Shown in pieces: positions 1,783 to 29,841 of a DNA stretch of 32,000 nucleotides. Every line of letters begins with the position of its first letter. Within the stretch, counting starts at the first letter, position 1. Source of the DNA: Candidatus Saccharimonas aalborgensis (GTDB lineage Bacteria > Patescibacteriota > Saccharimonadia > Saccharimonadales > Saccharimonadaceae); assembly GCF_000392435.1 (NCBI RefSeq), contig NC_021219.1, positions 1-32,000 on the forward strand, in the 5' to 3' direction. The position numbers and the translations under genes are program-made. The notes under the pieces are model-generated. The model ran no database searches and was not told the origin of the DNA. It saw only the letters and a list, made by a program, of their open reading frames with translations.

Positions 1783-2199
1783 CTATTTATTGAGTGCAAA
1801 GGTTTTTATGATGACATCAACATCTTGCATCAGGTCAGGGTGAGCCAGTATTTGCTCACCTGTCATCCACTTGTAATCAACATGCTCTCTTGGTTGAAGA
1901 ACTATTGACGGCCTTTGGTTAACGTGTAGTTCAAAAACTGGGAAAACGACGGTCATATTGGGATACTCGATAGGAAGTTCGCCCAGCCTCCTAAATTGTG
2001 ATACCTCAGACTTTATGCCCGTTTCCTCAAACAACTCTCGAGCGATCGCCTGGTCATCTGTCTCTCCGGCTTCAACTTTTCCTCCAGGTATTCCCCAGAG
2101 TGATGGATCAGTTTCCTTCTTCGTACGGAATAACATCAAAATATCAGCATTATGCCTGACAATACACCCTACAACTCTTAAAACTTTCTTATCGGTCAT
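1783..2199 (-). CDS. NUDIX hydrolase (about 139 aa)
   Basis: NUDIX box GGKVEAGETDDQAIARELFEETGI. The track ORF extends to 2445, but homology begins at MTDKKVLRVVGCIV (ATG 2199), preceded by a GAGGA SD. Confidence 0.85.
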   Translation of the reverse strand: MTDKKVLRVVGCIVRHNADILMLFRTKKETDPSLWGIPGGKVEAGETDDQAIARELFEETGIKSEVSQFRRLGELPIEYPNMTVVFPVFELHVNQRPSIVLQPREHVDYKWMTGEQILAHPDLMQDVDVIIKTFALNK

Positions 2200-2245
2200 A
2201 TACGTATCCTCAATTATGTTGGTTATTGTAGCACATCTATGTTTG

Positions 2246-2788
2246 TTACCCTTTGGGAGCCTGCTTAACGATCTGATGAAGAATGCCCACTCGCTCTGAG
2301 ATCGCCACGTCCGGCATAGTGATTGTCCGGATACCAAGTTCTTTATACAGCTGCGCCAACCGCTGGTGTATTTCCATAGCTTGTTCAATTGTCTCAAAGC
2401 GTTCGCCGTACGTGCCGACAAACTCGCATAGGATAACCGTGTCATAGGCAGCTATCTTTGCACTTTGTGCGGCACGATCCGCAATACCATCCAAGCCAGC
2501 CATCTGAGCATAGACGATGGTATCGGCTACCCCTCGATCAAAGACAGCTATCGAGTCATCAGCAACAGATTGATGCTGACGATGAGCTACCTCTAGGCAT
2601 GCCCCGCAAAACTGTTCAGGATTTGCGATCAATTCATCGACGCTATAGCCCTTTTCGCCATGGTGTTCAGCCAATACGACGGACGCCGGCTCAGGAAAGG
2701 CGACAACTGTCGGATCAAAACGAGCATATGCCTCAAGCAGAGAGGTCTTGCCCGTATGCGGCCCACCGGTGAGGACTATCTTCGTCAT
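2246..2788 (-). CDS. P-loop ATPase, AAA_28/NadR-kinase-like family
   Basis: Walker A GGPHTGKTS at the N-terminus. 180-aa size and overall pattern fit small AAA_28 nucleoside/nucleotide kinase-like ATPases. Confidence 0.7.
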   Translation of the reverse strand: MTKIVLTGGPHTGKTSLLEAYARFDPTVVAFPEPASVVLAEHHGEKGYSVDELIANPEQFCGACLEVAHRQHQSVADDSIAVFDRGVADTIVYAQMAGLDGIADRAAQSAKIAAYDTVILCEFVGTYGERFETIEQAMEIHQRLAQLYKELGIRTITMPDVAISERVGILHQIVKQAPKG

Positions 2789-2797
2789 AGTTTACCT

Positions 2798-2806
2798 GTT
2801 ATATCA
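2798..2806 (-). promoter_or_regulatory. Extended -10 (TGaTATAAC) 9 nt upstream of ATG 2788
   Basis: Reverse complement of 2789-2806 reads TGATATAACAGGTAAACT, then ATG. Lies in the AT-rich divergent intergenic region 2789-2915. Confidence 0.4.
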
Positions 2807-2844
2807 CTTTTACTAGCTTTTGTATAATATTTGCTTAATAACGC

Positions 2845-2873
2845 TTGAATTTTGTTGATGTTTGTGATATAAT
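2845..2873 (+). promoter_or_regulatory. Sigma70-type promoter for the formyltransferase/ThyX-like operon
   Basis: TTGAAT (2845-2850), 17-nt spacer, TATAAT (2868-2873) with a TG extension (TGATATAAT). GGAGG SD at 2901-2905 and GTG start at 2916. Confidence 0.55.
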
Positions 2874-2915
2874 AATTATCATTAGAACATAACCTGCTGC
2901 GGAGGCAAAAGTTAC

Positions 2916-3640
2916 GTGACGGAATTAACTCAAAAAGTGATCGATACTTTCCAGACTCGACCAAACGTTGCTGTTTTGATGAGCCTGGGTGGGTCAAATG
3001 CCGAGCGTCTCTCGGTGACCCTGACATTCGTAAGTTATATGATATATCTACCGTGGTATCCGATCAACCGAGCTCAAGAGGAGCTGAGGTCGCCGGTGAG
3101 CACGGACTTGACTATCTACTACGTCCTGTCGATCGATTTCGCACACCGGACGAGCGAGAAGCCTACTTCGATGCACTCTGCGCTGAATTAGGCGAACGCG
3201 GTGTGACGGCGTGTTTTTATGCTGGTTTTATGAAGATTTCAAAAGGTAAATTTGTTCGTGAGCTGCCAGGTATCAACGCACACCCGGCCGATTTAACCGT
3301 TACCGATGAAAGTGGTGTTCCGCTTTTTAGGGGGATGGATGCAATAAGCGCGATGCGCGCAGGCACCGACGGCATGATAGGTGCATCAACACACGTCGTC
3401 GCTGACAAAGTCGACACTGGTGCAACGTTTATTCGGTCGCTTCCCATTCACGCCCCCGCTAATATGACTGACGAGGCCTGTCATCAGCGCATCAAACAAG
3501 CTGAGCACCAGATCTATCCGCTGACACTGCGCATGCTTGGAAAAGGGTTAATTGACATAAGCCGCATGCCATATACATTTGATGAAGCAACGGGAATACT
3601 AACTGACGCATCAGGAAAGGTAGTTGACTATGACAAGTAA
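2916..3640 (+). pseudogene. PurN-family formyltransferase, reading frame broken near 3009-3017 (frameshift, possibly an assembly error)
   Basis: N-terminal piece (ORF 2916..3191) has NVAVLMSLGGSNAERL, matching the PurN VLISGxGSNLxA loop. The rest (frame of ORF 3053..3640) continues as DPDIRKLYDISTVVSDQ... and carries GINAHPADL (PurN NIHPSLLP: catalytic N and H), THVVADKVDTGA (catalytic D region) and EHQIYPL. The switch needs a -1 shift inside cgTCTCTCggtg. Confidence 0.7.
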
Positions 3641-4403
3641 GGTTGAGGTGATCGGCTCTACACCAACACTCGATATTGCAGACTTTTTCGAGGCGATAGC
3701 TCGTGAACCGCGGGCAAACAAACTTGGCGCTGCACTGGGGTTTGCTGGCTGCGCAAGCTGGGATGATGAAGGACGATATATCTGTGGGCCAAGCGTAAGC
3801 TTGGTAGGAATCGGCGGTGTACCGATTAGCCCAGAATTACTCGCGTTGTATCAGGATGGTGGCCGAAACATGATGGCGGCTTCGGCCGGAATGTCGTACC
3901 TCAATAGTGGCAACAAGCCTCTTGACGCCCTGTATCCATCTGTCATTGCCCGTGGTCATCACTCCATCGCACATACAACCACAGCCAATCTGCTTGTTGC
4001 TGGCGTTTCGAGTGGTGTCGAAAATGAATTTAATTCTCAGCGCGACGTCGTGCATCTCAGCCGTGTCACCAATGCTCGCACCGGCATCCAAGATCGGCCA
4101 CCAATTGTCGTGCCTTCCGCTGATCTGTTACCAATCACGCGCCATATCGTTGAAGCAACAGACGATGCACTTGCTACACTGCCAGCATCGACATCACTTG
4201 ACGAGAGAGAGGAACGTAATCTGCTCTATCCCTCAGCCAAAGCAACGCTTTTTTTGGCAACAGCGAGTCTGAGAAACTTCCAAAAACTAGTTGCTCAGGC
4301 GCATGATGATGGCAAAGAAAAAGAATACCAAACCGCACTCAGTGCAATCAACGACTGCTTATCATCACTATGGCCAGAGTTATTTACCCAGGAGGAACGC
4401 TAA
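3630..4403 (+). CDS. ThyX-like (flavin-dependent thymidylate synthase fold) protein with degenerate signature motif
   Basis: GHHSIAHTTTANLLVAGVSSGVENEFNSQRDVVHLSRVTNAR aligns by eye to ThyX GHESxxEH...FRHRxxSxxxxSxRY. The C-terminal LYPSAKATLFLATASLRNFQKLVAQ matches the ThyX helix pattern. AGGAAAGG SD 9 nt before ATG 3630 (TTG 3624 is less likely). Overlaps the upstream stop by 11 nt. Confidence 0.55.
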   Translation: MTSKVEVIGSTPTLDIADFFEAIAREPRANKLGAALGFAGCASWDDEGRYICGPSVSLVGIGGVPISPELLALYQDGGRNMMAASAGMSYLNSGNKPLDALYPSVIARGHHSIAHTTTANLLVAGVSSGVENEFNSQRDVVHLSRVTNARTGIQDRPPIVVPSADLLPITRHIVEATDDALATLPASTSLDEREERNLLYPSAKATLFLATASLRNFQKLVAQAHDDGKEKEYQTALSAINDCLSSLWPELFTQEER

Positions 4404-4404
4404 A

Positions 4405-5856
4405 GTGGTGCGACGGCTCGAGATTCACTCTACCTCACCAGATCACGGCGAGCGAGCCGCCGGCATCAAAGATACGCTTCGTCGTCACTTTGGTGTCTAC
4501 GGTGTCAAGCTAGCGTCGATCTATGATGCACCAGAGGAGGGAGTCTTCCTGTGGGATGGCGAGAGACACACGCCAGCAAGTGATACCGATCTCGCGGATT
4601 ATATCACCGAAACGCAGCGTCTTGAGGCCCCGGATCAAAGCTGTCGTGAAGATGCAGCCCTCCTCGATCGCTACTTCGATGACCAAGGACGTCTTGATAT
4701 ATATCGAAACCCCCTAGATTGGGTTTCCAGCAATCCTATGATTGCCGCATTGATCGAGAAAGATCCGCGCATCAATAATGTCCTAGCTTTTCTGTGCGAA
4801 CAGCGTGGATTGTTCCTAAAACCACCTCAGTATCGATTGCAGGGGAACTACTGGAACTCACCGTCAAATGGCGGTCTTCCTATTGTCCGCAAGAAAGACC
4901 CCATTCATGAGGGTACATTTATGCTTCACGACCTCTATCACCTGTTGATACAGGATCCGCTGCCGTATGATACCACTCAGGCAACACACGGACGGGCAAA
5001 CTTCCTCCATCACCGCATGGCTTCAGAGGCGACAACGATGGTGATGGCGGATATGCAGGGAGTGCACGTTGCCGAGCTTCGCGAACAAGGCTATGACACT
5101 TCAAAGCGACGGATTTATCCTGTGTTTGAAGCAATTTTAGAACACGCACCATCTGCCACTATTACCGATGTATTGTCAGCGAATATCGACTTCTGTTTGA
5201 CTGGTTCGACGCGTGCCTACGAGGCACTCGGTGTTCCCCCCGAGGTGCTGGCAACGTTCTGTGAGAAATACGACACGTTCTTTAGTGCTGATTATGATTG
5301 GAACGCTCATAATTTCGATGCTGTTGCACAAACTGTCGAACGTGATGCCGCACAGCATGAGTATTTCCAGCTCGCACGTGAACTGTATGGCCTACCCATG
5401 ATTGATGACCTATACGGTGAAATGGAAGCCAAGGATGTGATATTGGAGCGGTTTGCCGATCAGATCCAGGAAGCTTATAGCTACACTCCTCACAATGATG
5501 AGGTGTCACGAATGAAAGAAGTAGCGAAACGATACTTTGGGGGACAACTGGCTCTCTTTTATCAAGATACGTTCCGTCAATATCGTGACTCGCCTCTGTT
5601 TGAGATATACCTATCGACTTCACGTCTGTTGCTAGAGGCAGCTAGTCCTGAGGCTATCAGAGAATATACCGAGGCGCTCAACGATATCATTAGCACACTC
5701 CTCGATCAGCAGCGAACTGCGGGGGCTATTGACTCACAGCAATACGAACTCTATCGAATGCACGTACCACTGTATCCTGCATACTTTATCAATTATCAGC
5801 AAGAGCAGGGCCAGATCATTCCGCTCCGAGAACGCATTTCTGGTATGCAGCTATAG
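4405..5856 (+). CDS. Hypothetical 483-aa protein (HDLYH motif), translationally coupled to the ThyX-like gene
   Basis: The track ORF starts at 4291 inside the upstream gene. GTG 4405 lies 1 nt after the upstream TAA and 8 nt after GGAGGA (4391-4396). I recognise no family. Contains FMLHDLYHLL (HDxxH). Confidence 0.7.
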   Translation: MVRRLEIHSTSPDHGERAAGIKDTLRRHFGVYGVKLASIYDAPEEGVFLWDGERHTPASDTDLADYITETQRLEAPDQSCREDAALLDRYFDDQGRLDIYRNPLDWVSSNPMIAALIEKDPRINNVLAFLCEQRGLFLKPPQYRLQGNYWNSPSNGGLPIVRKKDPIHEGTFMLHDLYHLLIQDPLPYDTTQATHGRANFLHHRMASEATTMVMADMQGVHVAELREQGYDTSKRRIYPVFEAILEHAPSATITDVLSANIDFCLTGSTRAYEALGVPPEVLATFCEKYDTFFSADYDWNAHNFDAVAQTVERDAAQHEYFQLARELYGLPMIDDLYGEMEAKDVILERFADQIQEAYSYTPHNDEVSRMKEVAKRYFGGQLALFYQDTFRQYRDSPLFEIYLSTSRLLLEAASPEAIREYTEALNDIISTLLDQQRTAGAIDSQQYELYRMHVPLYPAYFINYQQEQGQIIPLRERISGMQL

Positions 5857-5876: not shown

Positions 5877-6437
5877 TTAACGACCAAGATATTCGACAAT
5901 ATCGGTTACTGTACGATCAAGTTGTCCAATGCGATTGATAACTACCTGATCAAATTGAGGCATCAAGCTAAGATCGGTTGGCTCAACTGCCAGTCGGGCG
6001 GCTATCTCATCCTCAGGTACACCGTGTTGTCTCATCTGTATAGCAATGTCAGACCAGGCAGCCGGTAAGAGTAGTGTTGTGCGGACAAATCCGGCACCTC
6101 TCGCACGCAGTTGTTCACGTAATTGAAGGGCTGTATGGGTTGCAACGTTGAATGTTCTGTCGTCACCTTCATCGAGTGCTTGCTCAAGAACTTTTAGAGG
6201 CGTCCCATATATTCCTGACGGAGTTTCTAACACGTCAAACATCGGCGTAGAAGCAGCTAGTTCACCAAACTCACTTTTAGATACAAAGTGATAGTCGATG
6301 CCATCACGCTCTCCTGATCGGGGAGGACGTGTTGCAAACGGAACGATAGGCATAATGCCATGATCATCCCGAAGTTTCTCGATAACTGTTGTTTTGCCAA
6401 TACCGCGGGGTCCAGAAAGAGTTACTATTCTTCCCAT
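5877..6437 (-). CDS. Guanylate kinase family protein
   Basis: P-loop GPRGIGKTT; ATRPPRSGERDGIDYHFVSKSEF matches Gmk TTRxPRxGExDGxDYxFV; IYGT matches YYGT. 186 aa. Confidence 0.8.
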   Translation of the reverse strand: MGRIVTLSGPRGIGKTTVIEKLRDDHGIMPIVPFATRPPRSGERDGIDYHFVSKSEFGELAASTPMFDVLETPSGIYGTPLKVLEQALDEGDDRTFNVATHTALQLREQLRARGAGFVRTTLLLPAAWSDIAIQMRQHGVPEDEIAARLAVEPTDLSLMPQFDQVVINRIGQLDRTVTDIVEYLGR

Positions 6438-6446
6438 ATAGTATAT

Positions 6447-6475
6447 ATTATACTACTTTAGTGTTTTTCTGTCAA
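6447..6475 (-). promoter_or_regulatory. Consensus sigma70 promoter TTGACA-N17-TATAAT, 9 nt upstream of ATG 6437
   Basis: Reverse complement reads TTGACA (6475-6470), GAAAAACACTAAAGTAG (17 nt), TATAAT (6452-6447), ATATACTAT, ATG. No SD. Confidence 0.65.
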
Positions 6476-6479
6476 TATT

Positions 6480-7526
6480 TTACACTGTCTGAGCCAAAGC
6501 AGCGTTGAGGATTGCTACTTCGCGACGTTTCATCATTTCAAGCCCAACTTTGCTACCATCTTCATCTGTAGTGGTCGCCGACTGAATCAGCCGAATTGCC
6601 TCGGCGTATGAAGGCACCCAGACGAGCTCCATTCCCTGAGCAGCTTCTTTTTGGGTAAGGTTCGTACCGACAAATTGATCTGTAAGTGCCCGATAACAGT
6701 AAGAGATTTGACGCATGCCATCAAAATAACGCTGCTCGATGACAACTCCCAGCGGGACAATAGTGTGAATAGTATACCCGGCTTCTTCCTGTACTTCACG
6801 CCGTAATCCATCCAAACGATCCTCATTCGTCTTAATACCGCCACCCGGTAATTTGTAGGAGCCGGTCTTAGTAAAGTGCATCAGGGCTATCTCACCCCGA
6901 CCATTTATAAGAACAACTCGCGCTGCATGACGAGTGTAGGACATCGCCCGGTCCTTTGGATCCACAAGCCCAAGCTCATGTTGATCTTGAGAAAGAATGA
7001 TCGGCAGTCCATCGGCACATGATCGTTCGATTATCGAGCAAATAAACCCACTTTTTGCCGCAGTATAGGCCTCCCTGTTATTTGCGTGCTGTTCGGCTAG
7101 TTGCCTCTTGAGAGCAGCATACTCCTCTCTTGCGTTACTGTGAGTACGTAAATAATTACGAAATGCAAGGACATCGGTATAAGCGGGGCTATCTTTTAGG
7201 ACGATGTGCAGGTAGTGGGTCCTGGCATGATCGGGTCCCTTGGGGACAAATATTTCCCAATCTTTGATCCGCTCGGGCATCCAGTGATACCCCAATGCCT
7301 CAAGTCCAGAGATATTTTGATATACTTCGTCAAATGAATCAACACCTATGAGGATATCAATGATCGGCTTGGCTACGAGACCCTGTACGGCCGTACTGCC
7401 TACGTGATGAATATCCTCACCCGAGAAGACGGGTTGAAGCAGCTCCTTTTCGTGCAAAAAGTCACTTGGCCAATCTCTACTGTAGTTGACCAGTTTCACC
7501 GTCTCCCTCGCGAGTCCAGCTGCCAT
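6480..7526 (-). CDS. GrpB-domain / NUDIX hydrolase fusion protein
   Basis: The N-terminal half has the GrpB (UPF0157) signature IHHVGSTAVQGLVAKPIIDILIGV. The C-terminal half has the NUDIX box GGGIKTNEDRLDGLRREVQEEAGY. Starts 21 nt after the fusA stop. Confidence 0.8.
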   Translation of the reverse strand: MAAGLARETVKLVNYSRDWPSDFLHEKELLQPVFSGEDIHHVGSTAVQGLVAKPIIDILIGVDSFDEVYQNISGLEALGYHWMPERIKDWEIFVPKGPDHARTHYLHIVLKDSPAYTDVLAFRNYLRTHSNAREEYAALKRQLAEQHANNREAYTAAKSGFICSIIERSCADGLPIILSQDQHELGLVDPKDRAMSYTRHAARVVLINGRGEIALMHFTKTGSYKLPGGGIKTNEDRLDGLRREVQEEAGYTIHTIVPLGVVIEQRYFDGMRQISYCYRALTDQFVGTNLTQKEAAQGMELVWVPSYAEAIRLIQSATTTDEDGSKVGLEMMKRREVAILNAALAQTV

Positions 7527-7547: not shown

Positions 7548-9635
7548 CTACTTCGATCGCTTCTCAATAATCTCTTGAGCAACGTTTGGTGGTACTTCCT
7601 CGTAGTGGGCAAGTTCCATTGTGCTAGCGGCACGACCCTGTGACATACTGCGGATGTCACCGGTATAACCAAACATATTTGCCAGCGGAACGATTGCTTT
7701 GACGAGTTTTGCTCCGCCCATGAGGTCCTCCATGGCTTCAATGCGACCACGACGGCTGTTGAGGTCACCGATGATATCACCCATGAACTCCTCAGGTGTG
7801 GTGACTTCGACATGCATCACAGGCTCGAGAATAATTGGGGTCGCTTGCTTGATACCGTCCCTTGCGGCAAGCGCACCAGCGAGCATAAAGGCCAATTCGC
7901 TCGAGTCAACATCGTGATAACTACCGTCGTAGAGTGTCGCCTTGACGTCGACGACAGGATAGCCAGCAATGACACCACTTTCGAGGGTCTCGCGGATACC
8001 TTTTTGGACAGCGGGTCGGTACTCCTGCGGAACGACACCGCCCTTGATCTCGTCGATAAACTCGAAGCCCTTTCCAGGCTCATTTGCTTCAAACTTAACC
8101 CATACATCACCATACTGTCCACGACCACCTGATTGCTTGGCATGCTTACCCTGGACTTGGCTAGTCCCCTTGATCGTCTCACGGAAGGCGACTTGCGGTT
8201 CACCGACATTTGCCTCGACGTTGAACTCACGTTTCATGCGGTCGATGAGGATCTCGAGATGAAGCTCACCCATGCCCGACATAATCGTCTGGCCTGTTTC
8301 GTCATCAGTGTGAATGCGGAAGGTTGGGTCTTCTTCGGCGAGGCGCTGCAAAGCGATACCCATTTTTTCCTGGTCGGCTTTGGTCTTTGGCTCGACGGCG
8401 ATACTGACAGGCGGCTCAGGAAATGTAATGGCCTCGAGTGCGATAGGATGAGCTGGATCACTTAGTGTGTGGCCGGTAAAGGTCGTCTTGAGGCCAACCA
8501 CGGCTGCGATATCACCTGCACCAATCTTATCGACATCCTCACGCTTGTCGGCATGCATACGGACGATACGGCCAACTCGCTCTTTTTCGCCAGAGGTGGT
8601 GTTGAGCACATAGCTTCCAGCCGTCAACACGCCAGAGTAGACACGAACGAAGATAAGTTTTCCGACAAATGGGTCAGTTGCGATCTTGAAGGCAAGAGCA
8701 GCCATTGGCTCTTTGTCGTCAGGCTTACGACTAATTTCATCACCTGTTTTGGGATTCTTTCCCCAAATTGCGTCAACATCGAGAGGACTTGGCAAGTAAT
8801 CAACCATGAGGTCGAGAACCTTCTCAACAATCACTCCGCGACCATCACCACCAGTGACAAGATAGAAGTCACCGGCCAGGACACGCTTGCGCAGCGCGCT
8901 CTTAAGCTCATCAACCGAGATTGCTTCCTCGCCATGCTCAAAGAACTTCTCCATAAGTGCATCGTCTGCCTCGACTGCGGCTTCCACGAGGAGACTACGA
9001 GCATTCTTTGCCTTTTCGTGCATATCTGCAGGAATCTCGCCCTGAACGAGCTCATGATCGGTAAAGTCGGTGTAGGTATACGCCTTCATATCGACAAGGT
9101 CGATGACGCCGTTGATGTCTTTTTCGAACCCAATTGGCAAGTGAATCGGCAGGGCATTCTTGCTGAGACGGCTATGGATAGACTCGAGCGACTTGTAGAA
9201 ATCACCACCGATCTGGTTGATCTTGTTGATGAAACAGATGCGGGGCACACCATACTTGTTTGCTTGACGCCAGACAGTTTCAGATTGCGCTTCCACGCCC
9301 ATTTTGCCATCAAACACCGTCACCGCGCCGTCCAGAACGCGAAGCGAACGCTCAACTTCAGCGGTAAAGTCAATGTGACCGGGAGTATCGATAATGTTGA
9401 TCTTGTGGCCCTTCCAGAAACAAGTCACGGCGGCAGAGGTAATGGTGATACCGCGCTCACGCTCCTGCTCCATCCAGTCAGTCGTCGTCTCACCATCGTG
9501 CACAGCACCGATCTTGTGGCTAAGACCAGTTCGATACAAAATCCCCTCTGTTGTCGTGGTTTTGCCGGCATCGATGTGTGCAATAATACCGATATTACGA
9601 AAGTCCTTGAGTGGGACGTTGGTTGGAGTTGCCAT
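7548..9635 (-). CDS. fusA: Elongation factor G
   Basis: 695 aa. G1 [22 protein letters not shown], and full-length EF-G domain pattern. AAGGA SD. Confidence 0.97.
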
Positions 9636-9718
9636 AGGGGTTCCTTGCTCTAAATGTGGAGCGACTTAACTAATAGTTTTTGCTGTTTTTTGCCATAACG
9701 AAACAGCACTTACTATCA

Positions 9719-9747
9719 ACTATACCACAAGAAGCTCATCCTGGCTA
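9719..9747 (-). promoter_or_regulatory. Possible fusA promoter (TAGCCA-N17-TGgTATAGT)
   Basis: Reverse complement has the extended -10 TGGTATAGT (9727-9719) and a weak -35 TAGCCA (9747-9742). An 8-bp hairpin (9681-9708) lies in the predicted 5' UTR. Confidence 0.35.
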
Positions 9748-9754
9748 GCGATCG

Positions 9755-10420
9755 CTACATATCTGTCGGAAGTAGTTTTTCGATACAGACACTGTCGGTA
9801 TTTTTGAGAATGAAAACTACTTCATCCAATTCTTCCCGAGACTGAGGCTCAAGTGCAGTATCGTATACACTGCTTTTGCCAACCAAAAATCCGCATGTTA
9901 GGCGAGCTTCACCAAGTTCGATCAAAACAGGACCTTTTATTGTACCGACGATCATTTTGCCCGAGGAGAGGGGTAAAACTGTGTCGATAGCATCTGACCG
10001 ACCAGGGGAAAGAGAGCAGACTGATACTCCATCACCTATTATTTTTACTTGATCGCCAGCACAGAGATGGAGCATGTCAGCAAATTCAATCGTTAGTATC
10101 TGTTTGATGGCTTCTCGATCAGAGAGAGATAACTGTCGCGGCGCCCCTTGTTGCCCAGCTGCAAGCAACGCTTCCAAAAGACTATGTACTGCGAGAACTT
10201 CACGCGTCACATCAAGAGTATACTGTTCAAGGGCAGCATCATAGCCGTCAACTTGTACCTCAATGGGTTCATGTCGAGCAATGTCTGCAAAGGCAATTTC
10301 CTCTCTACTGGCCGCCTCAAGTCTTGGGAGCAAGAATGGATCGTTCGCCAACTGCCAGCGTATTATGCCATCAAACCGTTGCTCATCATCTCCAGGACGC
10401 TCAGCCAAGACGCTCGGCAT
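9755..10420 (-). CDS. Hypothetical acidic 221-aa protein (cassette protein C)
   Basis: GAGGAGG SD 9 nt upstream of the ATG. 15 nt after the stop of the 786-aa gene. The C-terminal half resembles the type-2 module of the two upstream proteins (see findings). Confidence 0.7.
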   Translation of the reverse strand: MPSVLAERPGDDEQRFDGIIRWQLANDPFLLPRLEAASREEIAFADIARHEPIEVQVDGYDAALEQYTLDVTREVLAVHSLLEALLAAGQQGAPRQLSLSDREAIKQILTIEFADMLHLCAGDQVKIIGDGVSVCSLSPGRSDAIDTVLPLSSGKMIVGTIKGPVLIELGEARLTCGFLVGKSSVYDTALEPQSREELDEVVFILKNTDSVCIEKLLPTDM

Positions 10421-10435
10421 CAGGCAATGCCTCCT

Positions 10436-12796
10436 CTAGATGAGTAGTTGTTCGATCTGGCTAAACGGGACATACCGCACCTGCTCTTTCTCACTTTCGG
10501 TAATAGAATAGACAACGAGGATAGGCTCGATGGTCTCAAGTGCTCGGTACCCATAGATGACGTCGACAACACCGCAGGCGTATCCCGTATCGTTTGGATC
10601 AGTGCTCTCGTCCATAGGCGCACGTCCCCCATCTGGCTCATAGACACCGCCCTTGATAACAAGTCCTCTATCGGGGGTGAGGAGATCACGCAACACACGT
10701 GCTACCACATGACCAACTCGTTCCATAGTTGCCACTTTTACAGGATCAGACTCATCTCTAGACAGTGCAAGATGACGACACATTTCTTTTAATTGATCGA
10801 GAGAGCTGAGTGCTTTTAGCTCATGGAGAACTTCTACTTGACAGAGTTCTGCTTGGACCTGTCGCAGCACCTCCTCTATCTCGGTATGATCGCTTAGCTC
10901 ACCATTACCCGCCCAGTTCGACAGTGCGTCCTCGCGATTCCGGATTACTTCTAGTTCAGGAATACGGAAGTAGACCGACTTGTCTAGAGATACTTGGATA
11001 TATTTACGCACGTCGACGACGGCGATTGGCATCATTGTGCTACCTTCGAGTGTCAGTTGTGTCCCGGCGTTTGCCTTGACATCACGAAGCAGCATACCAA
11101 CCCGAAAACTGTAGATGTCTTTCTCGTCATTTTCGCTACGGAAACATTTTACTTCCTCATAGATGCCGCATTGTGAGGTAGTAATATTCCCAGCGACAAG
11201 TTGTGTGCCTTTCATTACAATACTGAACTCATGTTCCCTTGAATCACCGATAATAGAGAGAGTTGACTGGGGCACTAAAACCCCTTCGCCAAATACTTCT
11301 ATCAGCACCTCGATGGTGTCATAAAACTTTCCAAACGCAGCAATCATAAGGTTGAGCTCACGCATGGTTGCCAAAAACTCATCTCGATCTGAAAACGTTT
11401 TTGCACTGAGTTCTCGACAGCGCTCAGCAAAAAGGTTCAGGGCATGTTCGGCTTTCTCGAGGGTTTCACGTTTTGTTTCTCCGAGAAGTTCCTGAGCCAT
11501 CGCCAAAACAACCCCCGGATCGATCGCCTCAGCGACTTCATCCTCCGCAGCCTGTTCGGCAGCGAATAGCTCGACGAGAGACTCTGTGTCTTGAAACGCT
11601 GATCCGTCAGCAGCTACCTCTGGCACTTCGTTTTCCCCATCTGCATGTTCGACGGCAGTATCGACGTGCCGAAATGGCAGTTTCGCTGGGTCTGGTCGTG
11701 TTGTCTGATAGTTAATAACGGCATCAGCTGTAAAAAAGTATGGTGTCCTGCCGCCATCACGTTCGGGCACGGCTTCTAACGCGTGAAATGCTGGTAGATA
11801 GGTTATCTCGGTATCATAATCACCTGTTCCTGCTTGTTCCCATAATCGCATGCCTTTAACGTAGAGAATTCGAGGTCGGGTGTCATAATGTGGCCGAACA
11901 ATCGGTTCCAGGTCAGCCAATTTTCCAACAATTTTCCCGCCAATCCAAAAGAAATATGGCTCAGTCCCATCAAAATCAAGTTGGCGAGTAAGATAGCGCT
12001 CAAGCATGTCAATGATACTTATCCTGGTATGGCCAGCACCGTTGACCTTTTGCCAGTCAATCGTAATGGCAAAATCATCAAGTGCTCGCATGATCGCCTT
12101 TTCACGATTCTTAGCATAGTTAATTCGTTCGATCATTGCGTCAATTTGTTTTTTTATATCAGGTAGCAGCTCAGTGATTTCTCGTTCTTCGGAGCGATCA
12201 GACATATGCGGTAATTGAATATTTTCGATATCACCAATCTGGAGAGTAAACCACGCTGTGTCTTCGGGGTAATCCTCCGCCTTGGAGAAATCAAGCACCA
12301 GGTGGCGATAGGTCCCAGGTAGAAGTCCGTCGATGCTCTCGAAACCCCTTATCTCAGTTGTTTGCTCATTAAATCCAATCAAATGGAGCGGAAAATGCGT
12401 AACCTTGTAGTGCTGACCCCTCAGATCAAGTTCAAGCTCAGGAAATACATCATCAAATAACTCTTCAACATCTTTTTCGGTATCTCTTAGGTAATCGGTC
12501 AAGAAGGTCGTATGACGAATCCGACCGGTGACCATAACTGTCGCCTGTTGATAGCCTAGCTCACGAAGCTCAACATTGAGATCAACGAGAAGTCGTTGAA
12601 TCTCTTCCTCGGTCACATCGCCTCTGTTGATTTGAAGCTCAACCTGCTCGGCTTTTTTTAGCAAGGCCGCGAACCCTGCATCGAACTGTTCCCTTACATC
12701 GGGAGAGGTTTGCCACTCAGAGGCCACGATGGCGTCAAAAACTTCTGATTTCTTTTGGCTATCATCATCAGAAGGTGGCATTTCCATCACTGTCAT
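10436..12796 (-). CDS. Hypothetical acidic 786-aa protein (cassette protein B), internally duplicated
   Basis: Long uninterrupted ORF with no catalytic motif I recognise. Looks like two copies of the unit found once in the upstream protein. Confidence 0.75.
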   Translation of the reverse strand: MTVMEMPPSDDDSQKKSEVFDAIVASEWQTSPDVREQFDAGFAALLKKAEQVELQINRGDVTEEEIQRLLVDLNVELRELGYQQATVMVTGRIRHTTFLTDYLRDTEKDVEELFDDVFPELELDLRGQHYKVTHFPLHLIGFNEQTTEIRGFESIDGLLPGTYRHLVLDFSKAEDYPEDTAWFTLQIGDIENIQLPHMSDRSEEREITELLPDIKKQIDAMIERINYAKNREKAIMRALDDFAITIDWQKVNGAGHTRISIIDMLERYLTRQLDFDGTEPYFFWIGGKIVGKLADLEPIVRPHYDTRPRILYVKGMRLWEQAGTGDYDTEITYLPAFHALEAVPERDGGRTPYFFTADAVINYQTTRPDPAKLPFRHVDTAVEHADGENEVPEVAADGSAFQDTESLVELFAAEQAAEDEVAEAIDPGVVLAMAQELLGETKRETLEKAEHALNLFAERCRELSAKTFSDRDEFLATMRELNLMIAAFGKFYDTIEVLIEVFGEGVLVPQSTLSIIGDSREHEFSIVMKGTQLVAGNITTSQCGIYEEVKCFRSENDEKDIYSFRVGMLLRDVKANAGTQLTLEGSTMMPIAVVDVRKYIQVSLDKSVYFRIPELEVIRNREDALSNWAGNGELSDHTEIEEVLRQVQAELCQVEVLHELKALSSLDQLKEMCRHLALSRDESDPVKVATMERVGHVVARVLRDLLTPDRGLVIKGGVYEPDGGRAPMDESTDPNDTGYACGVVDVIYGYRALETIEPILVVYSITESEKEQVRYVPFSQIEQLLI

Positions 12797-12844
12797 ATGC
12801 CCTAGTAAATAGAGGAACCACCTCTATTGCAAGCATAGCCGCTA

Positions 12845-13804
12845 TCATGTTGGCTTGAGTAAGTCATAGAGAAGCTCTCGTGATGACCGAAGCTGCACGA
12901 CAGCGCTCGCCGGTACTTCCCTATGAATATCATCTCCTGTCTCAGGCAGAAACGTTACTTCGATGAAAGGTACGGCGATATGATGCGCTTTGTCCAGATC
13001 ATCCGAGCCCGGGAGAACACTCATACGGATTGATTTGTAGCGGAAAAAGCCGACAAATGGCCCTTTGGTTTGTCCAGGATGGACAGGCTCGCTCTGTTGT
13101 AAATAGTCACCCGAAAATGCCATAAGGTACGGAAAATCTCTATTGCCAATCGTCCGTTGGTTGATGACCTCCTGGATGTCTTGAAGACGCTGCATGCTTG
13201 CTTCGTCGGTCGGGACAAACTCGATAGCATAGCTCGCTAGCGCCGGTAGAATGGTTTCGAGCGATCCAGCTTCTGGCAGGTGCTGCTCAAGTCTCGCTAG
13301 CTCATTTGGGTGAAAATAACGTAGCCGACGTTCACCGCCATCAGGGTCAAAGCGAGAAAAATCATATTTGAGGCTGCCGATAACTGATTCACCTCTCGCA
13401 ATAGAGCTCGTCGAACCGGGCACGCTAAAGATATGCACGATCTGTCTGCCTGGCAAAGCGGTGATTTCCTCAGTGTTTGGCTGAACATCATCAATGGCAA
13501 ACCCCAGGCTAACGACAGGCATAGAATCAAACATGCGTATTTCGACATGCCCAACGTGCGGATTCATAAACCATGCCGATCCAGTTGCCGGCAACAAAGC
13601 ACCGTAAATACCGATGGCTCGCCATTCGTCATCAAGTTCAGCTATGAGTGAAGTTAGCTCTTCCTCTGAAAAGCACTGTCGATCGGCTCGCAGCATGGTA
13701 TTGAAATCGCGTATATGACCATACAGCTCGTGTACTTTTTTTGGCAACATAACAGCTTCGAGCGATTCAATTGGATCAATATTTCTTCGTTGCACCTCTG
13801 CCAT
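12845..13804 (-). CDS. Hypothetical acidic about 319-aa protein (cassette protein A); start uncertain
   Basis: The ORF extends to 13936, but that extension overlaps the divergent gene start at 13903. ATG 13804 (MAEVQRRNIDP...) leaves a 98-bp divergent promoter region. No clear SD at any candidate start. Confidence 0.65.
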   Translation of the reverse strand: MAEVQRRNIDPIESLEAVMLPKKVHELYGHIRDFNTMLRADRQCFSEEELTSLIAELDDEWRAIGIYGALLPATGSAWFMNPHVGHVEIRMFDSMPVVSLGFAIDDVQPNTEEITALPGRQIVHIFSVPGSTSSIARGESVIGSLKYDFSRFDPDGGERRLRYFHPNELARLEQHLPEAGSLETILPALASYAIEFVPTDEASMQRLQDIQEVINQRTIGNRDFPYLMAFSGDYLQQSEPVHPGQTKGPFVGFFRYKSIRMSVLPGSDDLDKAHHIAVPFIEVTFLPETGDDIHREVPASAVVQLRSSRELLYDLLKPT

Positions 13805-13876
13805 AGTATCTGTATTAAATCTTGTAAGGATCCTCAGAGCAAGCGTAAACAGTTCGCTAATAGCGATAGAGTATCC

Positions 13877-13882
13877 TATAAT
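13877..13882 (+). promoter_or_regulatory. -10 box TATAAT for the 13903 gene
   Basis: TATAAT lies 20 nt upstream of ATG 13903, with a GGAG SD (13892-13895) between. The -35 is weak. Confidence 0.4.
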
Positions 13883-13902
13883 GATCAGCATGGAGTAATC
13901 CC

Positions 13903-15009
13903 ATGAGTACCAATGTAGAGTCAAAACCGACATCATGGATTGATCGCCTCAGAGGACGTAAGTTCATGAGGAAAATTGGTGCGGGGGCCATGGCTGTCCA
14001 GGCTATCACCGGCATTACATCAGAGATGGGATTTTCGTTGATGCCAAGCGCGGTCTATTCTTACGCCGAGACCGATGAGGCTAAGACCTACACCCCAAAC
14101 ACTTTCTGTATCTTCCTCCCCGGGAGAGGAATTACTCGACTGGCGCGCGACTTTGCGGATGCCTATCAGCCTACAACCAGACAGTATTGTCGGAGCACCG
14201 TCTTGGAATATAGCGAGGGAGGGATAAGTGAAAAAGAGCTTGAGCATAGCATCCGGCGATATGTCAACGACCACGCCATACCAGACAGACCTATTCAGCT
14301 CGTGGTAATTGCATCAAGTATGGGCGGTAACGTGGCAGTTCCGGTTTTTGGTGCTATCGCTAGAGATACCGAAAATACCTCCCAGCCAATTTCTACTCGT
14401 GGACTGCTTCTCGATTCTTCACCGGCCGGAACAATTAGCCTCAAAGGTCCGATCCAAGGATTTGCCGTCGGTACAATGTCAGGACTTCAAGGAAAACCTG
14501 TTCATGGTATTTTTGAACCGCCGCTGCGCGTTGGATTTGAGTTTGCATCAAGGGCTGTCAATCATGATTTTCCCGAATCGGCTTCCACCGTTTTTTCCTA
14601 TCTAGAGGATGGCGTCCGAGTTGCAAATGAAACACGGGGTCGGCTTGATATGGATGAAATGAATATTATTAATAACTTCGATCCAGATAAGCAAGACTAT
14701 GGGTTTCTCAAAAAAGCCAATGCAGTAATTGTTTACACTCATGCCGATACGGAAGCGGCGGATGTAACTGTACAGTGGTCGGTGGCAAGTTGGCTATGGA
14801 AAACTGCACTCGCTCGTCAACAAATTAGTATGGGCGAAATAGCCATCAAAGACGGTAGACATGCAAATCCAAACACTGCACCAGACCCATACAACCAAGC
14901 GTTACTCTCACTTCTAAAACAAACAGGTCTACCGAGTATCGCCGATCTGCGACGCGAGGAGTTCTACGACCACTTTGATCGAGTTGGAAACGATAGATTG
15001 CCTAGTTAG
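13903..15009 (+). CDS. Putative secreted alpha/beta-fold hydrolase (esterase/lipase-like)
   Basis: N-terminal basic and hydrophobic signal-like segment RLRGRKFMRKIGAGAMAVQAITG. Nucleophile-elbow-like VVIASSMGGNV (AxSxG). 368 aa. Confidence 0.6.
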   Translation: MSTNVESKPTSWIDRLRGRKFMRKIGAGAMAVQAITGITSEMGFSLMPSAVYSYAETDEAKTYTPNTFCIFLPGRGITRLARDFADAYQPTTRQYCRSTVLEYSEGGISEKELEHSIRRYVNDHAIPDRPIQLVVIASSMGGNVAVPVFGAIARDTENTSQPISTRGLLLDSSPAGTISLKGPIQGFAVGTMSGLQGKPVHGIFEPPLRVGFEFASRAVNHDFPESASTVFSYLEDGVRVANETRGRLDMDEMNIINNFDPDKQDYGFLKKANAVIVYTHADTEAADVTVQWSVASWLWKTALARQQISMGEIAIKDGRHANPNTAPDPYNQALLSLLKQTGLPSIADLRREEFYDHFDRVGNDRLPS

Positions 15010-15014
15010 GGGGG

Positions 15015-17309
15015 TTAACTGTGCTGATCAGGTGTCTGCTGGCTGCTACCAGGACGAACGTCAGTAGTCATTGGCGCCGGAAATCCGCTACCCGCGGCGA
15101 GCGGCTGTGGTGATCTTCGGGCGTGAACAAACACAAGGAGTGCACCTGCGATTACCATAATGAGTGCAAACAGCGATGCAACGATGACGAGAATAATCAT
15201 AAGCGGTGATGAGAGATTGAAGGCAGATGCCCCAGACTCATCACTTGTTTGTGACTTTGCTCCCTCAGCAAACTTATTGATAAAGTAGTTATCATTATAT
15301 TTTGCCTGTAGTGTAGAGAACGTTTTTGAGGCTTCAGAATACCGGCCAGCCCCAAATTGGTCAAGACCCTGTTGCCAGAGTGAAGCGACCGAACCATCCG
15401 TTTTGAGGGAAATATTGTTTTTTGAGAGCAAGTTACGCAAATCGTTTGCGTCACGCACATACCCGTTTGTAAAACATGTCTCACCATTACGGCTACATCC
15501 TTGGATCGTAGCACCGTATGTGTTCAGCCCAACTTGCACACCCTTTTTGTTGAACGCCGGACCACCGCTATTTCCTGATGCAATACGTGCAGAGGTGATG
15601 AGAAGTGTATGACCACCGGCGTCGCCGTTTTGCTTTATCTCTAGTACCTCTCCCTGTGTAATACTTGGGTAGGTTTTGACACTTTTTGTGCCGAGACCAT
15701 CATCAACAAATGCGGGATATCCTATAGCAGTAACTTCTTCGCCTTGCCCAATATCTGAGGCTGTTCCCAGTGATACTACCGGAAAATCACCCTCAGCCTT
15801 GATAATTGCGACATCCGAATGTGATGATGACGCATTAAATGTCATGGAAGATTCATCAAAATCATAATCTACAAGACTAGCTTTAATACGAGTTTTGTCG
15901 TATGTCCAACTAGAGCTATCAATATTAAATTTCAGAGGAGTATCTGATGTTTGGACGACAATATGCCGCTCAGTATTGGTTCGCAAGACGCCAGTTAGCG
16001 GCGTTCTAGAGCCGATTAAGATAAGCGCTTGTCTTGCCTGTTTGTCACCGGCTTTTGCTTTGGCCATAGTATCATTGATCTGATCCTGAGTAGCATAGCC
16101 CGCCTGGACTGCATACTTGAAATAGTTATTGAGCACCGACGGATCGTCTATATAGGAGAGCCCGTAGAGCAGAACATCAAGCTGGACAGTATAAACAACA
16201 TGACCGTTGGTAGCAATATACCCGTCGCTTGAGATAAATGACCCGCTGCCAATTACCGGAATACCACAGAGATGTTTCACTGAAAAACTTGCTCCGTTGT
16301 CAGCACGTAAGGTCAAGTCGGTACACGAGAAAACACCGATCCGTACCGTGGCAGGTTGGTTGTGGGCGACAACTGGAACGAATGTTTGACTGTTGAGCAC
16401 ATCGGGTACATTTGCCGTGTCTGATGCTGCATTCTTTGTGGGATTCACCGTGTCTGTCGAAGCAAGATCAAACGAAGTAGCCACCATTGTCGATATACCC
16501 GCAGAAACAACTGAACTTTCTGCATAGGCAGAATCAAGCGGCTTTGAGTAGGAGACACTTGCAATCACCTTCATATAGCTTTGATATTCGTCAAGCGTCT
16601 GATCGACAAAGCTGTCGGTAAACGATATCCAGTAGGGGCGATCGTTTTGAACTGTCATAAGATAGTACGAATAACTTGAAGTTGTACTACCAAGGAGATC
16701 GTACGTATGCACGGCAAGAATCTCTCTATAGTCCACCGATCCGATCTTTATTATTTTGTCACTCTGTACTGTGTCGCCATTCTTTGCGATCGTCTCTTTT
16801 TGGCGTGCCACAAGTAATTCAATCGGAGAGAGAGCCTGGTATTTCTGTTCTAATTTACTTTTGTCGAAGTAATTCTGATGATGATTTGTGAATAATCGCA
16901 TCCCTGGATGTGAAATATAGTCATATTCACCCTTTGGGCTAGTGGCAGCAATAGGATCAATCGTTATCATCACATAGGCACGACGGGTATCGAGATCTGT
17001 TCCGTCGTATTCTTCTCCCGTCACCATACCAGGCTTCTGAACTTTATCCAATACTTGACCGTGAGCGATATGCGTTTGGGAATTGTACGTGATGGCCATA
17101 CCCAAATCAGAACGAATAGTTTTATCATACTTCTCAGCAATCGTATCCTGAACGATAGCTTTTATCTTTGTTTGTGCAGATGGATTAATGTAATTTGTAA
17201 TATTTTTCCCGTAAGTAAACAACAACCCGATGCAAGCGACGAGCAGGATGCTGCTTACAAGCAAAATAATACTCAGGTGTTTCTTGTGTCGATGTTCGAG
17301 CCGTGGCAT
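15015..17309 (-). CDS. Trypsin-like (S1 family) serine protease with N- and C-terminal membrane anchors
   Basis: Catalytic triad contexts IATNGHVVY (His), SDVAIIKAEG (Asp), ASGNSGGPAF (Ser). N-terminal TM LSIILLVSSILLVACIGLLF. C-terminal TM LMIILVIVASLFALIMVIAGALLVFV followed by a Pro/Gly-rich tail. AAGAGGA SD. Confidence 0.85.
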   Translation of the reverse strand: MPRLEHRHKKHLSIILLVSSILLVACIGLLFTYGKNITNYINPSAQTKIKAIVQDTIAEKYDKTIRSDLGMAITYNSQTHIAHGQVLDKVQKPGMVTGEEYDGTDLDTRRAYVMITIDPIAATSPKGEYDYISHPGMRLFTNHHQNYFDKSKLEQKYQALSPIELLVARQKETIAKNGDTVQSDKIIKIGSVDYREILAVHTYDLLGSTTSSYSYYLMTVQNDRPYWISFTDSFVDQTLDEYQSYMKVIASVSYSKPLDSAYAESSVVSAGISTMVATSFDLASTDTVNPTKNAASDTANVPDVLNSQTFVPVVAHNQPATVRIGVFSCTDLTLRADNGASFSVKHLCGIPVIGSGSFISSDGYIATNGHVVYTVQLDVLLYGLSYIDDPSVLNNYFKYAVQAGYATQDQINDTMAKAKAGDKQARQALILIGSRTPLTGVLRTNTERHIVVQTSDTPLKFNIDSSSWTYDKTRIKASLVDYDFDESSMTFNASSSHSDVAIIKAEGDFPVVSLGTASDIGQGEEVTAIGYPAFVDDGLGTKSVKTYPSITQGEVLEIKQNGDAGGHTLLITSARIASGNSGGPAFNKKGVQVGLNTYGATIQGCSRNGETCFTNGYVRDANDLRNLLSKNNISLKTDGSVASLWQQGLDQFGAGRYSEASKTFSTLQAKYNDNYFINKFAEGAKSQTSDESGASAFNLSSPLMIILVIVASLFALIMVIAGALLVFVHARRSPQPLAAGSGFPAPMTTDVRPGSSQQTPDQHS

Positions 17310-17900: not shown

Positions 17901-17902
17901 GA

Positions 17903-29793: not shown

Positions 29794-29841
29794 GTCATAC
29801 ACTATGACAAACATGCCGTAGACGCGCAATAGGCATAAACG

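Follow-up and report, generated by a model that had tools for sequence, protein, structure and literature searches.

Introduction

Phage T4 combines a dCTPase with a dCMP hydroxymethylase and a dNMP kinase, and the Z-genome cluster joins MazZ, PurZ and DatZ to the guanylate kinase and nucleoside diphosphate kinase (NDK) of the host. In these pool-modification pathways a nucleoside triphosphate (NTP) pyrophosphatase releases a nucleoside monophosphate (NMP), an enzyme of thymidylate-synthase or other type alters the base, and kinases acting on nucleoside mono- and diphosphates rebuild the triphosphate. A like arrangement is found around an operon in the DNA analysed here, the first 32,000 nucleotides (the window) of contig NC_021219.1 of Candidatus Saccharimonas aalborgensis, a member of the Saccharibacteria. 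The operon encodes a PurN-like formyltransferase (FT), a ThyX-fold protein (ThyXL) and a 483-residue protein that we call G3. A MazG-like enzyme and a guanylate-kinase-type kinase are found both in the phage pathways and in the ThyXL/G3 system. Unlike the phage pathways, the latter uses a ThyX-fold protein, not ThyA or PurZ, together with G3, and it is chromosomal in cellular organisms and has no companion DNA polymerase or glucosyltransferase.

The individual components also have described relatives. ThyXL shares its fold with canonical ThyX (PF02511; PDB 1O26, 2AF6, 3GWC), from which it differs in being obligatorily paired or fused with G3. PolB, a homologue of ThyX that has been described as methylating UMP during the biosynthesis of polyoxin (PMC5003785), is a precedent for the recruitment of a ThyX-family enzyme, in a specialised gene cluster, to a nucleotide that is not dUMP. 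Unlike PolB, ThyXL clusters with kinases and pyrophosphatases and not with antibiotic-assembly genes. PolB is said to keep the ThyX motif and the chemistry with FAD and methylenetetrahydrofolate, whereas most such residues are lost from ThyXL. FT resembles PurN (TIGR00639, PF00551) in its fold, its Asn-His-Asp triad, its AGFMKI folate loop and its GSN loop. It also resembles DpdN, a phage PF00551 enzyme for which formylation of the preQ1/dPreQ1 aminomethyl group has been predicted (PMC10516641), in being a PurN-superfamily enzyme in the context of base modification and not of purine synthesis. Unlike PurN and DpdN, FT is surrounded by no purine pathway, has no 7-deazaguanine genes nearby and is fused to MazG in some lineages. 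Finally, Ham1/ITPase (RdgB) and MazG act alone, whereas in G3 systems they are built into a multi-enzyme conversion module.

Here we propose that a conserved pathway, with FT, ThyXL and G3 as its core, turns one free nucleotide into another at the monophosphate level by chemistry as yet undescribed, a reading to which we assign a probability of about one half. Our literature searches found no description of a ThyX-like/G3 nucleotide module, and it appears to be an undescribed system, centred on a ThyX fold put to a new purpose and on a new enzyme family.

Results

The three genes form a co-conserved unit in Saccharibacteria

The three genes are co-directional and translationally coupled, and a promoter-like site precedes them (Table 1). 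An earlier note on this DNA, made from the letters alone, had described one good promoter and overlapping or abutting gene boundaries, and each of these features was recovered. The promoter scored 10 out of 12 in a consensus scan, the ATG at 3630 overlaps the upstream gene by 11 nt (stop codon TAA at 3638-3640), and the GTG at 4405 follows the TAA at 4401-4403 after a 1-nt gap, with the Shine-Dalgarno sequence AGGAGGA at 4391-4397. The consensus scan also revealed a second promoter-like site (TTGACA-16-TACATT, 3552-3579) just 5′ of gene 2, which could allow genes 2 and 3 to be expressed independently. The count of three genes given in the note stands for genes 2 and 3, which are intact, and fails for gene 1, which is frameshifted in the window.

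A fuller operon is present in the Saccharibacteria-type contigs L001, L003, L012, L020/21, L022, L023, L026, L027, L086 and L087, at 30-60% protein identity. Its order is FT, ThyXL, a MazG-like gene and G3, then a convergent guanylate-kinase-like gene, then a divergent NDK-like gene. The NDK-like protein retains the HGSD catalytic motif, and AAA_28 kinase-like and Nudix genes often lie alongside. With at least ten independent loci of this kind, the trio proved to be a co-conserved unit, and its co-occurrence is far beyond chance. The partners score below the NCBIfam cut-offs of the housekeeping enzymes (NDK-like, 35 bits against 155; MazG-like, 50-60 against 148-208), and such sub-threshold paralogues are as expected if the substrate is a non-standard nucleotide. 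As for the window lineage, the MazG-like gene has been lost, with the Nudix, AAA_28, guanylate-kinase-like and GrpB-Nudix genes kept around the trio.

A protein of ~185-215 residues without a Pfam match adjoins the NDK-like gene in several contigs (L001:10752-11393, L012:6209-6763 and equivalents in L020 and L022) and may be a further component of the operon.

A ThyXL/G3 core is joined to nucleotide enzymes in other lineages

G3 neighbourhoods outside the window were analysed by simple calling of open reading frames and home-made hidden Markov models (HMMs). The 69 metagenome loci plus those collected earlier represent 63 distinct G3 lineages, and the counts below refer to the 32 lineages with at least 1.2 kb of flank on both sides. 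A ThyX-like gene or domain lies within 5 kb of G3, or is fused to it, in 28 of the 32, and an NTP pyrophosphatase is present in 31. FT occurs in 11 lineages, twice as a fusion with MazG, and kinases likewise occur in 11.

Outside Saccharibacteria the core consists of two genes, encoding ThyXL and a G3 protein of ~560 residues that in most cases bears an N-terminal Ham1/ITPase-like domain, as in Rhizobium sp. BK176. The Ham1-like motifs (T.N..K..E, FGWDD.F and K.S.R) were recognised in 93 of 144 such extra segments, and in P0151 the domain scores above the Pfam cut-off. An R2K ATP-grasp gene was considered as a third component of the Rhizobium-type pair and discarded; BLAST did not find it common to L014 and L015, and the R2K paper makes no link to ThyX.

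Domain fusions join the same activities in single polypeptides. G3 is followed by ThyXL in one chain in 29 of 173 representative G3 proteins. Other architectures are adenylate kinase-Ham1-G3-ThyXL, G3-guanylate kinase, G3-Nudix-adenylate kinase and G3 with a true Ham1 domain, and longer G3 polypeptides also carry a calcineurin-like phosphoesterase or a Pol-beta-type nucleotidyltransferase. A 1,335-residue protein of the adenylate kinase-Ham1-G3-ThyXL type is encoded by a solitary gene in a bacterial metagenome-assembled genome (MAG). In two non-Saccharibacteria loci (L052:~2583-4400 and L066:~9180-10300) a fusion of FT with a MazG-like domain (~375 residues) lies beside Ham1-G3 and ThyX-like genes, which links the formyltransferase directly to NTP pyrophosphatase. 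All the attached partners of G3 and ThyXL are thus enzymes that handle nucleotide phosphates, taking NTPs to NMPs or building NMPs back up. The linkage to nucleotide kinases and NTP pyrophosphatases pointed out in the earlier note is therefore borne out both by MazG-, guanylate-kinase- and NDK-like partners and by the Ham1, adenylate kinase, guanylate kinase and Nudix domains fused to G3.

The core also occurs in viral sequence. A 341-kb IMG/VR contig of 30% GC encodes a Ham1-G3 protein (561 residues) followed directly by a ThyX-like protein of 252 residues (L089:7515-9958), and a 911-kb viral contig carries a fragmented copy (L088:7224-8825). No relative of G3 was detected by tblastn in a collection of 50,697 phage records or in a plasmid collection. 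The note's comparison with phage nucleotide-pool clusters holds for the association with kinases and pyrophosphatases, as conserved partners and as fusions, and finds no counterpart in relatives from those collections.

In one group of low-GC contigs, Ham1-G3 is followed by a conserved 241-residue protein with an HxD...H-like pattern (AHSDAY ... YVIHRS) and no Pfam match (L030:5092-5817, with equivalents in L031, L034 and L047). It could be an oxygenase-type addition to the system.

ThyXL is a divergent ThyX-fold protein

ThyXL matches Pfam Thy1 (PF02511) over its full length with 19.9 bits (E=7e-4), below the gathering score of 24.8. An AlphaFold model built from an alignment of 32 family members reached a predicted local distance difference test (pLDDT) value of 92, and Foldseek matched this model to ThyX structures only (3HZG, 2AF6 and 1O26; probability 1.0, E down to 9e-9, template modelling (TM) score ~0.57, 14-19% identity). 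The description of gene 2 as divergent and ThyX-like in the earlier note is in agreement with these data. As modelled, ThyXL has a true, very divergent ThyX fold, and by both motif and Pfam score it does not qualify as a canonical thymidylate synthase.

Profile alignment revealed that ThyXL keeps GHxS and the equivalents of E92, R97 and R199 of Mycobacterium tuberculosis ThyX. Elsewhere in the active site R95-H96-R97 is replaced by S-Q-R, S105 by Ala, R107 by Thr, R172 by Asn and R87 by Val or Ser. The RHRx7S motif has thereby become SQRDxxHLSR, and three of the four arginines that clamp dUMP are gone. The family has a strictly conserved set of residues of its own, namely SYLN, E131, E133, Q137-R138-D139, H142, T147, Q154, E194, N197 and G228-K229-E230. 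The methylene/FAD chemistry that the earlier note had attributed to gene 2 turned out to be an assumption, most of the cofactor- and dUMP-binding residues being replaced.

G3 is a new family with an invariant HDxxH motif

G3 gave no match in Pfam, NCBIfam, PHROG, PADLOC or the PDB sequences, whether the query was the sequence itself or a profile, which agrees with the earlier failure to recognise a family for the 483-residue protein. Searched with HMMER against 1.84 billion representative proteins, a G3 profile retrieved 463 relatives at 50% clustering. H175, D176, H179, E208, D216, D296 and N303 are conserved in all of 164 relatives examined, and K163, D165, H168, E169, D184, R204, Y230, R235, W299 and Q381 in at least 94% of them. 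The HDLYH motif singled out in the earlier note thus lies at the centre of the conserved cluster and is invariant throughout the family. In the AlphaFold model, which is mostly helical (pLDDT 90.9), the conserved residues map to three long helices, and their pattern looks like a putative metal-binding catalytic site. Membership of the HD-domain (class I phosphodiesterase) superfamily, whose fold binds metal through H...HD...D ligands, was considered for G3. Its invariant HDxxH, with an E 29 and a D 117 positions further on, resembles the HD[LIVMFY]xH signature of phosphodiesterases; there is no match in Pfam.

Only two structural relatives of G3 were found, uncharacterised proteins of Tupanvirus soda lake and deep ocean (BFVD A0A6N1NWN3 and A0A6N1NDB5; E 5.7e-15 and 4e-10, TM ~0.68). 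PDE6 (E=0.64, TM 0.12), dGTPase (E=4.7) and terpene synthase were rejected as fold assignments, with E above 0.6 and TM below 0.2. The N-terminus of the window protein was also compared with Ham1 (PF01725); it has no HMM match, the hhalign probability is 9.7% and the motifs are absent. The N-terminus of Saccharibacteria G3 might conceivably be a decayed Ham1 domain, an idea that was set aside in view of that low probability.

FT belongs to a restricted PurN-superfamily clade and is frameshifted in the window

The reading frame of FT is interrupted in the window. The N-terminal 32 codons (2916-3011) end in NVAVLMSLGGSNAERL, and the remainder (3011-3640) begins with LGDPDIRKLYDISTVVSDQ in the -1 frame. 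The longest intact open reading frame, GTG 3053-3640, encodes 195 residues and does not include the N-terminal phosphate-binding loop. Five relatives at 94-99% DNA identity (L005/L006/L007, L011 and L090) have the extra base and an intact FT of 241 residues. Among them, L011 is a MAG of Candidatus Saccharimonas aalborgensis (94.6% identity over 11.6 kb) and L090 a metagenome scaffold from ENA (98.8% over 7.45 kb). Programmed frameshifting was discarded, as there is no slippery site and the relatives all have one more base. The DNA comparison shows a single-base deletion specific to the window sequence, either a recent inactivation or an error of assembly or sequencing; accordingly, either the window strain uses the ThyXL/G3 core alone or its FT contains a sequencing error. 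No gene in the window other than FT is obviously disrupted.

On a 356-kb JGI contig, L010, the genes for EF-Tu, FT and G3 are all fragmented (L010:1414-2690 and L010:9284-12260). The FT and G3 fragments were dropped as evidence of decay, since EF-Tu is fragmented too and the contig is probably prone to frameshift errors.

The intact orthologue from L005 aligns end to end with human GART and PurN structures (E~1e-12). In this alignment INAHP and KVDTG correspond to N106, H108 and D144 of the human and Escherichia coli enzymes, and AGFMKI corresponds to AGFMRI; the downstream fragment in the window has the same triad and folate-loop residues. According to the structure-based alignment, FT orthologues retain the N-terminal GSN phosphate loop and have an insertion of eight residues past the catalytic His. 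The FT of L011 reaches only 78.7 bits against the PurN equivalog TIGR00639 (NCBIfam), for which the cut-off is 150.1. The FT clade comprises 12 clusters among 5.8 billion proteins, and all members with readable context lie within this type of operon. One homologue is labelled 'PurN' in one metagenome source. As judged from these alignments, FT is a predicted PurN-superfamily formyltransferase with an acceptor other than that of PurN. This acceptor is probably a phosphoribosyl compound with an aliphatic amine, because the phosphate loop is retained and the chemistry of the family is of this kind.

The low score, the confinement of the clade to this operon wherever context could be read, and the literature on Saccharibacteria, which reports no de novo purine synthesis, together argue that gene 1 is not an ordinary purN, the possibility left open by the earlier note. 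The same literature describes Saccharibacteria as lacking de novo nucleotide synthesis altogether, living on scavenged nucleotides and carrying many Nudix genes.

Neighbouring genes and setting

Further nucleotide-related genes surround the trio in the window (Table 1). The guanylate-kinase-like protein matches the P-loop and overall fold of TIGR03263 and, with 94.4 bits, misses the cut-off of 160; an orthologue occupies the same position in L001, L003, L012, L020, L023, L086 and L087. The adjoining GrpB-Nudix fusion is possibly part of the nucleotide module in the window lineage. The AAA_28 protein has a weak match to 'thymidylate kinase' in PHROG (1.8e-5) and also lies next to the operon in L003, L022 and L087. 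The Nudix hydrolase upstream is a candidate for the NTP pyrophosphatase of this lineage.

Table 1. Features of the FT-ThyXL-G3 operon and its neighbours (window coordinates)
Feature	Position	Strand	Basis and remarks
Nudix hydrolase, ~140 aa from an internal Met	1783..2205	-	Pfam NUDIX 7.6e-20; orthologue upstream of the operon in L001, L010, L090
AAA_28 P-loop kinase-like protein, 180 aa, divergent from the operon	2246..2788	-	Pfam AAA_28 1.1e-25
Sigma-70-like promoter TTGAAT-N17-TGaTATAAT, upstream of the operon	2845..2873	+	Direct reading; consensus scan 10/12, extended -10 TG
FT, 5′ fragment; GTG start at 2916, GGAGG ahead at 2901-2905; encodes MTELTQKVIDTFQTRPNVAVLMSLGGSNAERL, including a GxGSN-type loop	2916..3011	+	Three-frame translation; collinear with intact 241-aa orthologues L005, L011, L090
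1-nt deletion, shift from FT frame to -1	3008..3013	+	CTCTC in the window, CTCCTC or CTTCTC in relatives (DNA alignments)
FT, 3′ part in the shifted frame; INAHP (Asn, His), KVDTG (Asp), AGFMKI folate-loop motif	3011..3640	+	Pfam Formyl_trans_N E=2.2e-11, profile positions 63-180
ThyXL, 257 aa; MSYLNSGN, GHxSxAHT, VENEFNSQRDxxHLSRxTxART, DxGKExEY	3630..4403	+	Pfam, family alignment, AlphaFold, Foldseek
G3, 483 aa, new mostly alpha-helical family	4405..5856	+	Profile, sequence and structure searches
Guanylate-kinase-like NMP kinase, convergent with G3 (20-nt gap), conserved partner	5877..6437	-	Pfam Guanylate_kin 6e-14
Perfect promoter TTGACA-17-TATAAT of the guanylate-kinase-like gene	6447..6475	-	Consensus scan 12/12; stronger than the operon promoter
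GrpB (nucleotidyltransferase-fold)-Nudix fusion, 348 aa, adjoins the kinase	6480..7526	-	Pfam GrpB 2.7e-46, NUDIX 8.2e-12; kept in L005, L011, L090

The window also contains the core genes rpoB, rpoC, rpsL, rpsG, fusA, tig, clpP and hisS. Besides the trio, no purine-pathway gene and no canonical thyA or thyX was found in the 32 kb, which is what the earlier note had stated of other de novo purine and classical thymidylate genes. No RNA element emerged when the window was scanned with Rfam and for tRNAs and the spacer at 1352-1782 was folded. The rpsG/rpsL genes (17421-18316) lie ~7.5 kb from fusA (7548-9635), genes that are usually contiguous; the interval 9755-17309 holds five genes, encoding proteins of 221, 786, 363 and 368 residues without a Pfam match and a 764-residue membrane-anchored trypsin-like protease. 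At 29224-29829 the minus strand encodes a protein that resembles type IV pilins and has the N-terminal methylation motif (Pfam N_methyl); type IV pili have been proposed in the literature as a DNA-uptake route of Saccharibacteria.

Discussion

A proposed nucleotide conversion at the monophosphate level

The pathway reading builds on gene order, co-conservation, domain fusions, folds and the catalytic residues kept or lost, all of which were observed; from these we infer which way the pathway runs, its substrates, all of its chemistry and what becomes of the product. Across the operons and fusions, an NTP pyrophosphatase, a putative base-modifying enzyme and an NMP kinase are co-encoded. A conversion at the monophosphate level is proposed because a change to base or sugar is possible only through ThyXL, G3 and FT, the partners being phosphate enzymes and sub-threshold paralogues.

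In the proposed scheme, an NTP pyrophosphatase would take a (d)NTP to the (d)NMP; this task would fall to the MazG-like enzyme in most Saccharibacteria and to the G3-fused Ham1/ITPase-like domain in other bacteria, and in the window lineage probably to the Nudix protein nearby. ThyXL and G3, as an obligate pair, would then change the base, or perhaps the sugar, probably by combining a ThyX-type one-carbon transfer with a metal-dependent step at the invariant HDxxH/E/D/D/N residues of G3. Where FT is present, it would transfer a formyl group from 10-formyltetrahydrofolate (10-formyl-THF) to an aliphatic amine of the phosphoribosyl product, a type of step for which the predicted phage formyltransferase DpdN offers a precedent. 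The guanylate-kinase-like and NDK-like kinases, or a fused adenylate kinase, would finally raise the product to the di- and triphosphate. Speculatively, ThyXL might bring a methylene group to the base, water or an amine might capture this group with the help of G3, and FT might cap the amine. As to the class of substrate, purines are hinted at by partners such as Ham1, adenylate kinase and guanylate kinase, and uracil-type pyrimidines by the ThyX fold.

A more specific form of this proposal can be put forward only tentatively. The module may be a cellular, non-phage pathway to a new non-canonical (d)NTP, catalysed by ThyXL and G3 as an obligate pair, with G3 founding a new metal-enzyme fold and the product either destined for the organism's own nucleic acids or acting against viruses or hosts as an analogue. 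For example, FT might N-formylate a C1-modified purine or a pyrimidine with a C5-aminomethyl or hydroxymethyl group. On this more specific proposal, candidate phyla radiation (CPR) bacteria would share their two-enzyme ThyXL/G3 core with Proteobacteria, with Tupanviruses and with one very large viral contig.

Several observations weigh against conversion at the monophosphate level or against parts of it. The operon is rare, having been found by a pattern scan with G3 in 3 of 185,579 species genomes, which argues against a core role. The window lineage has no MazG-like or NDK-like gene and its FT is frameshifted, and in four of the 32 lineages G3 has no ThyX-like partner within the sequence at hand. 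Equivalents of R87, R95, H96, S105, R107 and R172 (M. tuberculosis numbering) are lost from ThyXL; flavin binding appears doubtful, and flavin/folate chemistry is not assured because most of the residues that bind dUMP and FAD are replaced. The G3 model found no significant fold match among 350,000 PDB chains with Foldseek (best PDE6, E=0.64), and because there is no fold relative among solved structures, its putative status as a metal enzyme is drawn from conserved residues.

Alternative explanations

Ordinary purN and thyX genes, made to look divergent by the fast evolution of CPR bacteria and lying beside an unrelated hypothetical gene, would account for PurN and ThyX being the closest database resemblances and for the 'PurN' label of the metagenome homologue. 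This explanation is contradicted on several counts and we regard it as highly improbable, as the scores reach about half of the curated cut-offs, a lone glycinamide ribonucleotide transformylase would have no pathway to serve, the FT clade is restricted to this operon wherever its context could be read, 29 representative proteins join G3 to ThyX-like domains in one chain and the ThyX active-site motif is gone. A thymidylate supply line for a salvage-dependent cell is easier to entertain and still unlikely. Here ThyXL would be an odd dUMP-to-dTMP synthase, the pyrophosphatases would yield dUMP from dUTP or dCTP, the kinase-like proteins would be dTMP and dTDP kinases, and FT and G3 would service the folate or flavin cofactors, for instance by supplying THF from 10-formyl-THF or reducing equivalents. 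The ThyX fold itself, the weak 'thymidylate kinase' matches of the AAA_28 and guanylate-kinase-like proteins in PHROG, the need of Saccharibacteria to interconvert salvaged nucleotides and the absence of canonical thyA and thyX from the 32-kb window are all in its favour. It is at odds with the loss of the RHRx7S signature and of three of the four dUMP-clamping arginines, with the sub-threshold Thy1 score, with the Ham1, adenylate-kinase and guanylate-kinase partners, which suggest purine-type nucleotides, and with a module that is rare in Saccharibacteria and present in Rhizobium sp. BK176; rhizobia have thyA.

The two remaining explanations retain a nucleotide conversion and differ in its purpose, and we consider neither of them probable. 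If the module sanitises nucleotides, Ham1, MazG and Nudix would remove modified or damaged NTPs, G3, ThyXL and FT would repair the base at the NMP level, and the kinases would return a canonical nucleotide. House-cleaning pyrophosphatases are indeed the most constant partners (31 of 32 lineages), Saccharibacteria rely wholly on external nucleotides and have many Nudix genes, and the kinases imply that the product is re-used. Formyl transfer, however, builds instead of removing, and we know of no de-modification enzyme that resembles ThyXL, G3 or FT; the two-gene core also occurs in Proteobacteria that are prototrophic and live freely, as well as on giant-virus or large viral contigs, and its distribution is patchy even among obligate scavengers. 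If instead the module serves in antiviral or anti-host conflict, it would make a toxic or chain-terminating analogue or deplete a nucleotide, in the manner of viperin with its companion kinases or of the dCTP-deaminase and dGTPase defences. Partnership with kinases is typical of analogue-producing systems, the sporadic spread over CPR bacteria, Alphaproteobacteria and viruses resembles horizontal transfer, and some loci have neighbours of defence or mobile type, namely AbiEii and helix-turn-helix genes (L015), RHS/Imm44 (L010), a type IV secretion system (L001) and, as read from translations, an AAA-type ATPase and a PLD-like gene (L012). Against this, FT, ThyXL, G3, the MazG-like and the AAA_28 proteins have no match in PADLOC-DB 2.0, where the guanylate-kinase-like protein gives only a marginal P-loop match, and no sensor or effector domain is evident. 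The window operon, moreover, lies amid core genes (fusA, rpsG/L and rpoBC), keeps its synteny in relatives and is preceded by a promoter of constitutive appearance.

A role in making or salvaging a modified or non-canonical nucleotide, which the earlier note had raised as a speculative possibility, is strengthened by comparative genomics and is the best-supported hypothesis, although it is still unproven. Of the three findings that the note had named as refuting its reading, namely well-characterised unrelated families for ThyXL and the 483-residue protein, a lack of co-conservation and a complete purine pathway, none was encountered.

Implications

If the proposed conversion of a free nucleotide is correct, G3 would be a new enzyme family of at least 463 clusters at 50% identity with no annotation anywhere, and ThyXL would represent a new functional branch of the ThyX fold. 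Since single-polypeptide versions and compact five-gene operons are directly expressible, the chemistry is testable now. Nucleotide-pool editing at the monophosphate level, a phage trait, would reach into cellular organisms and giant viruses as well. In Saccharibacteria, it could mean a modified genome or transcriptome, or a means of coping with foreign modified nucleotides.

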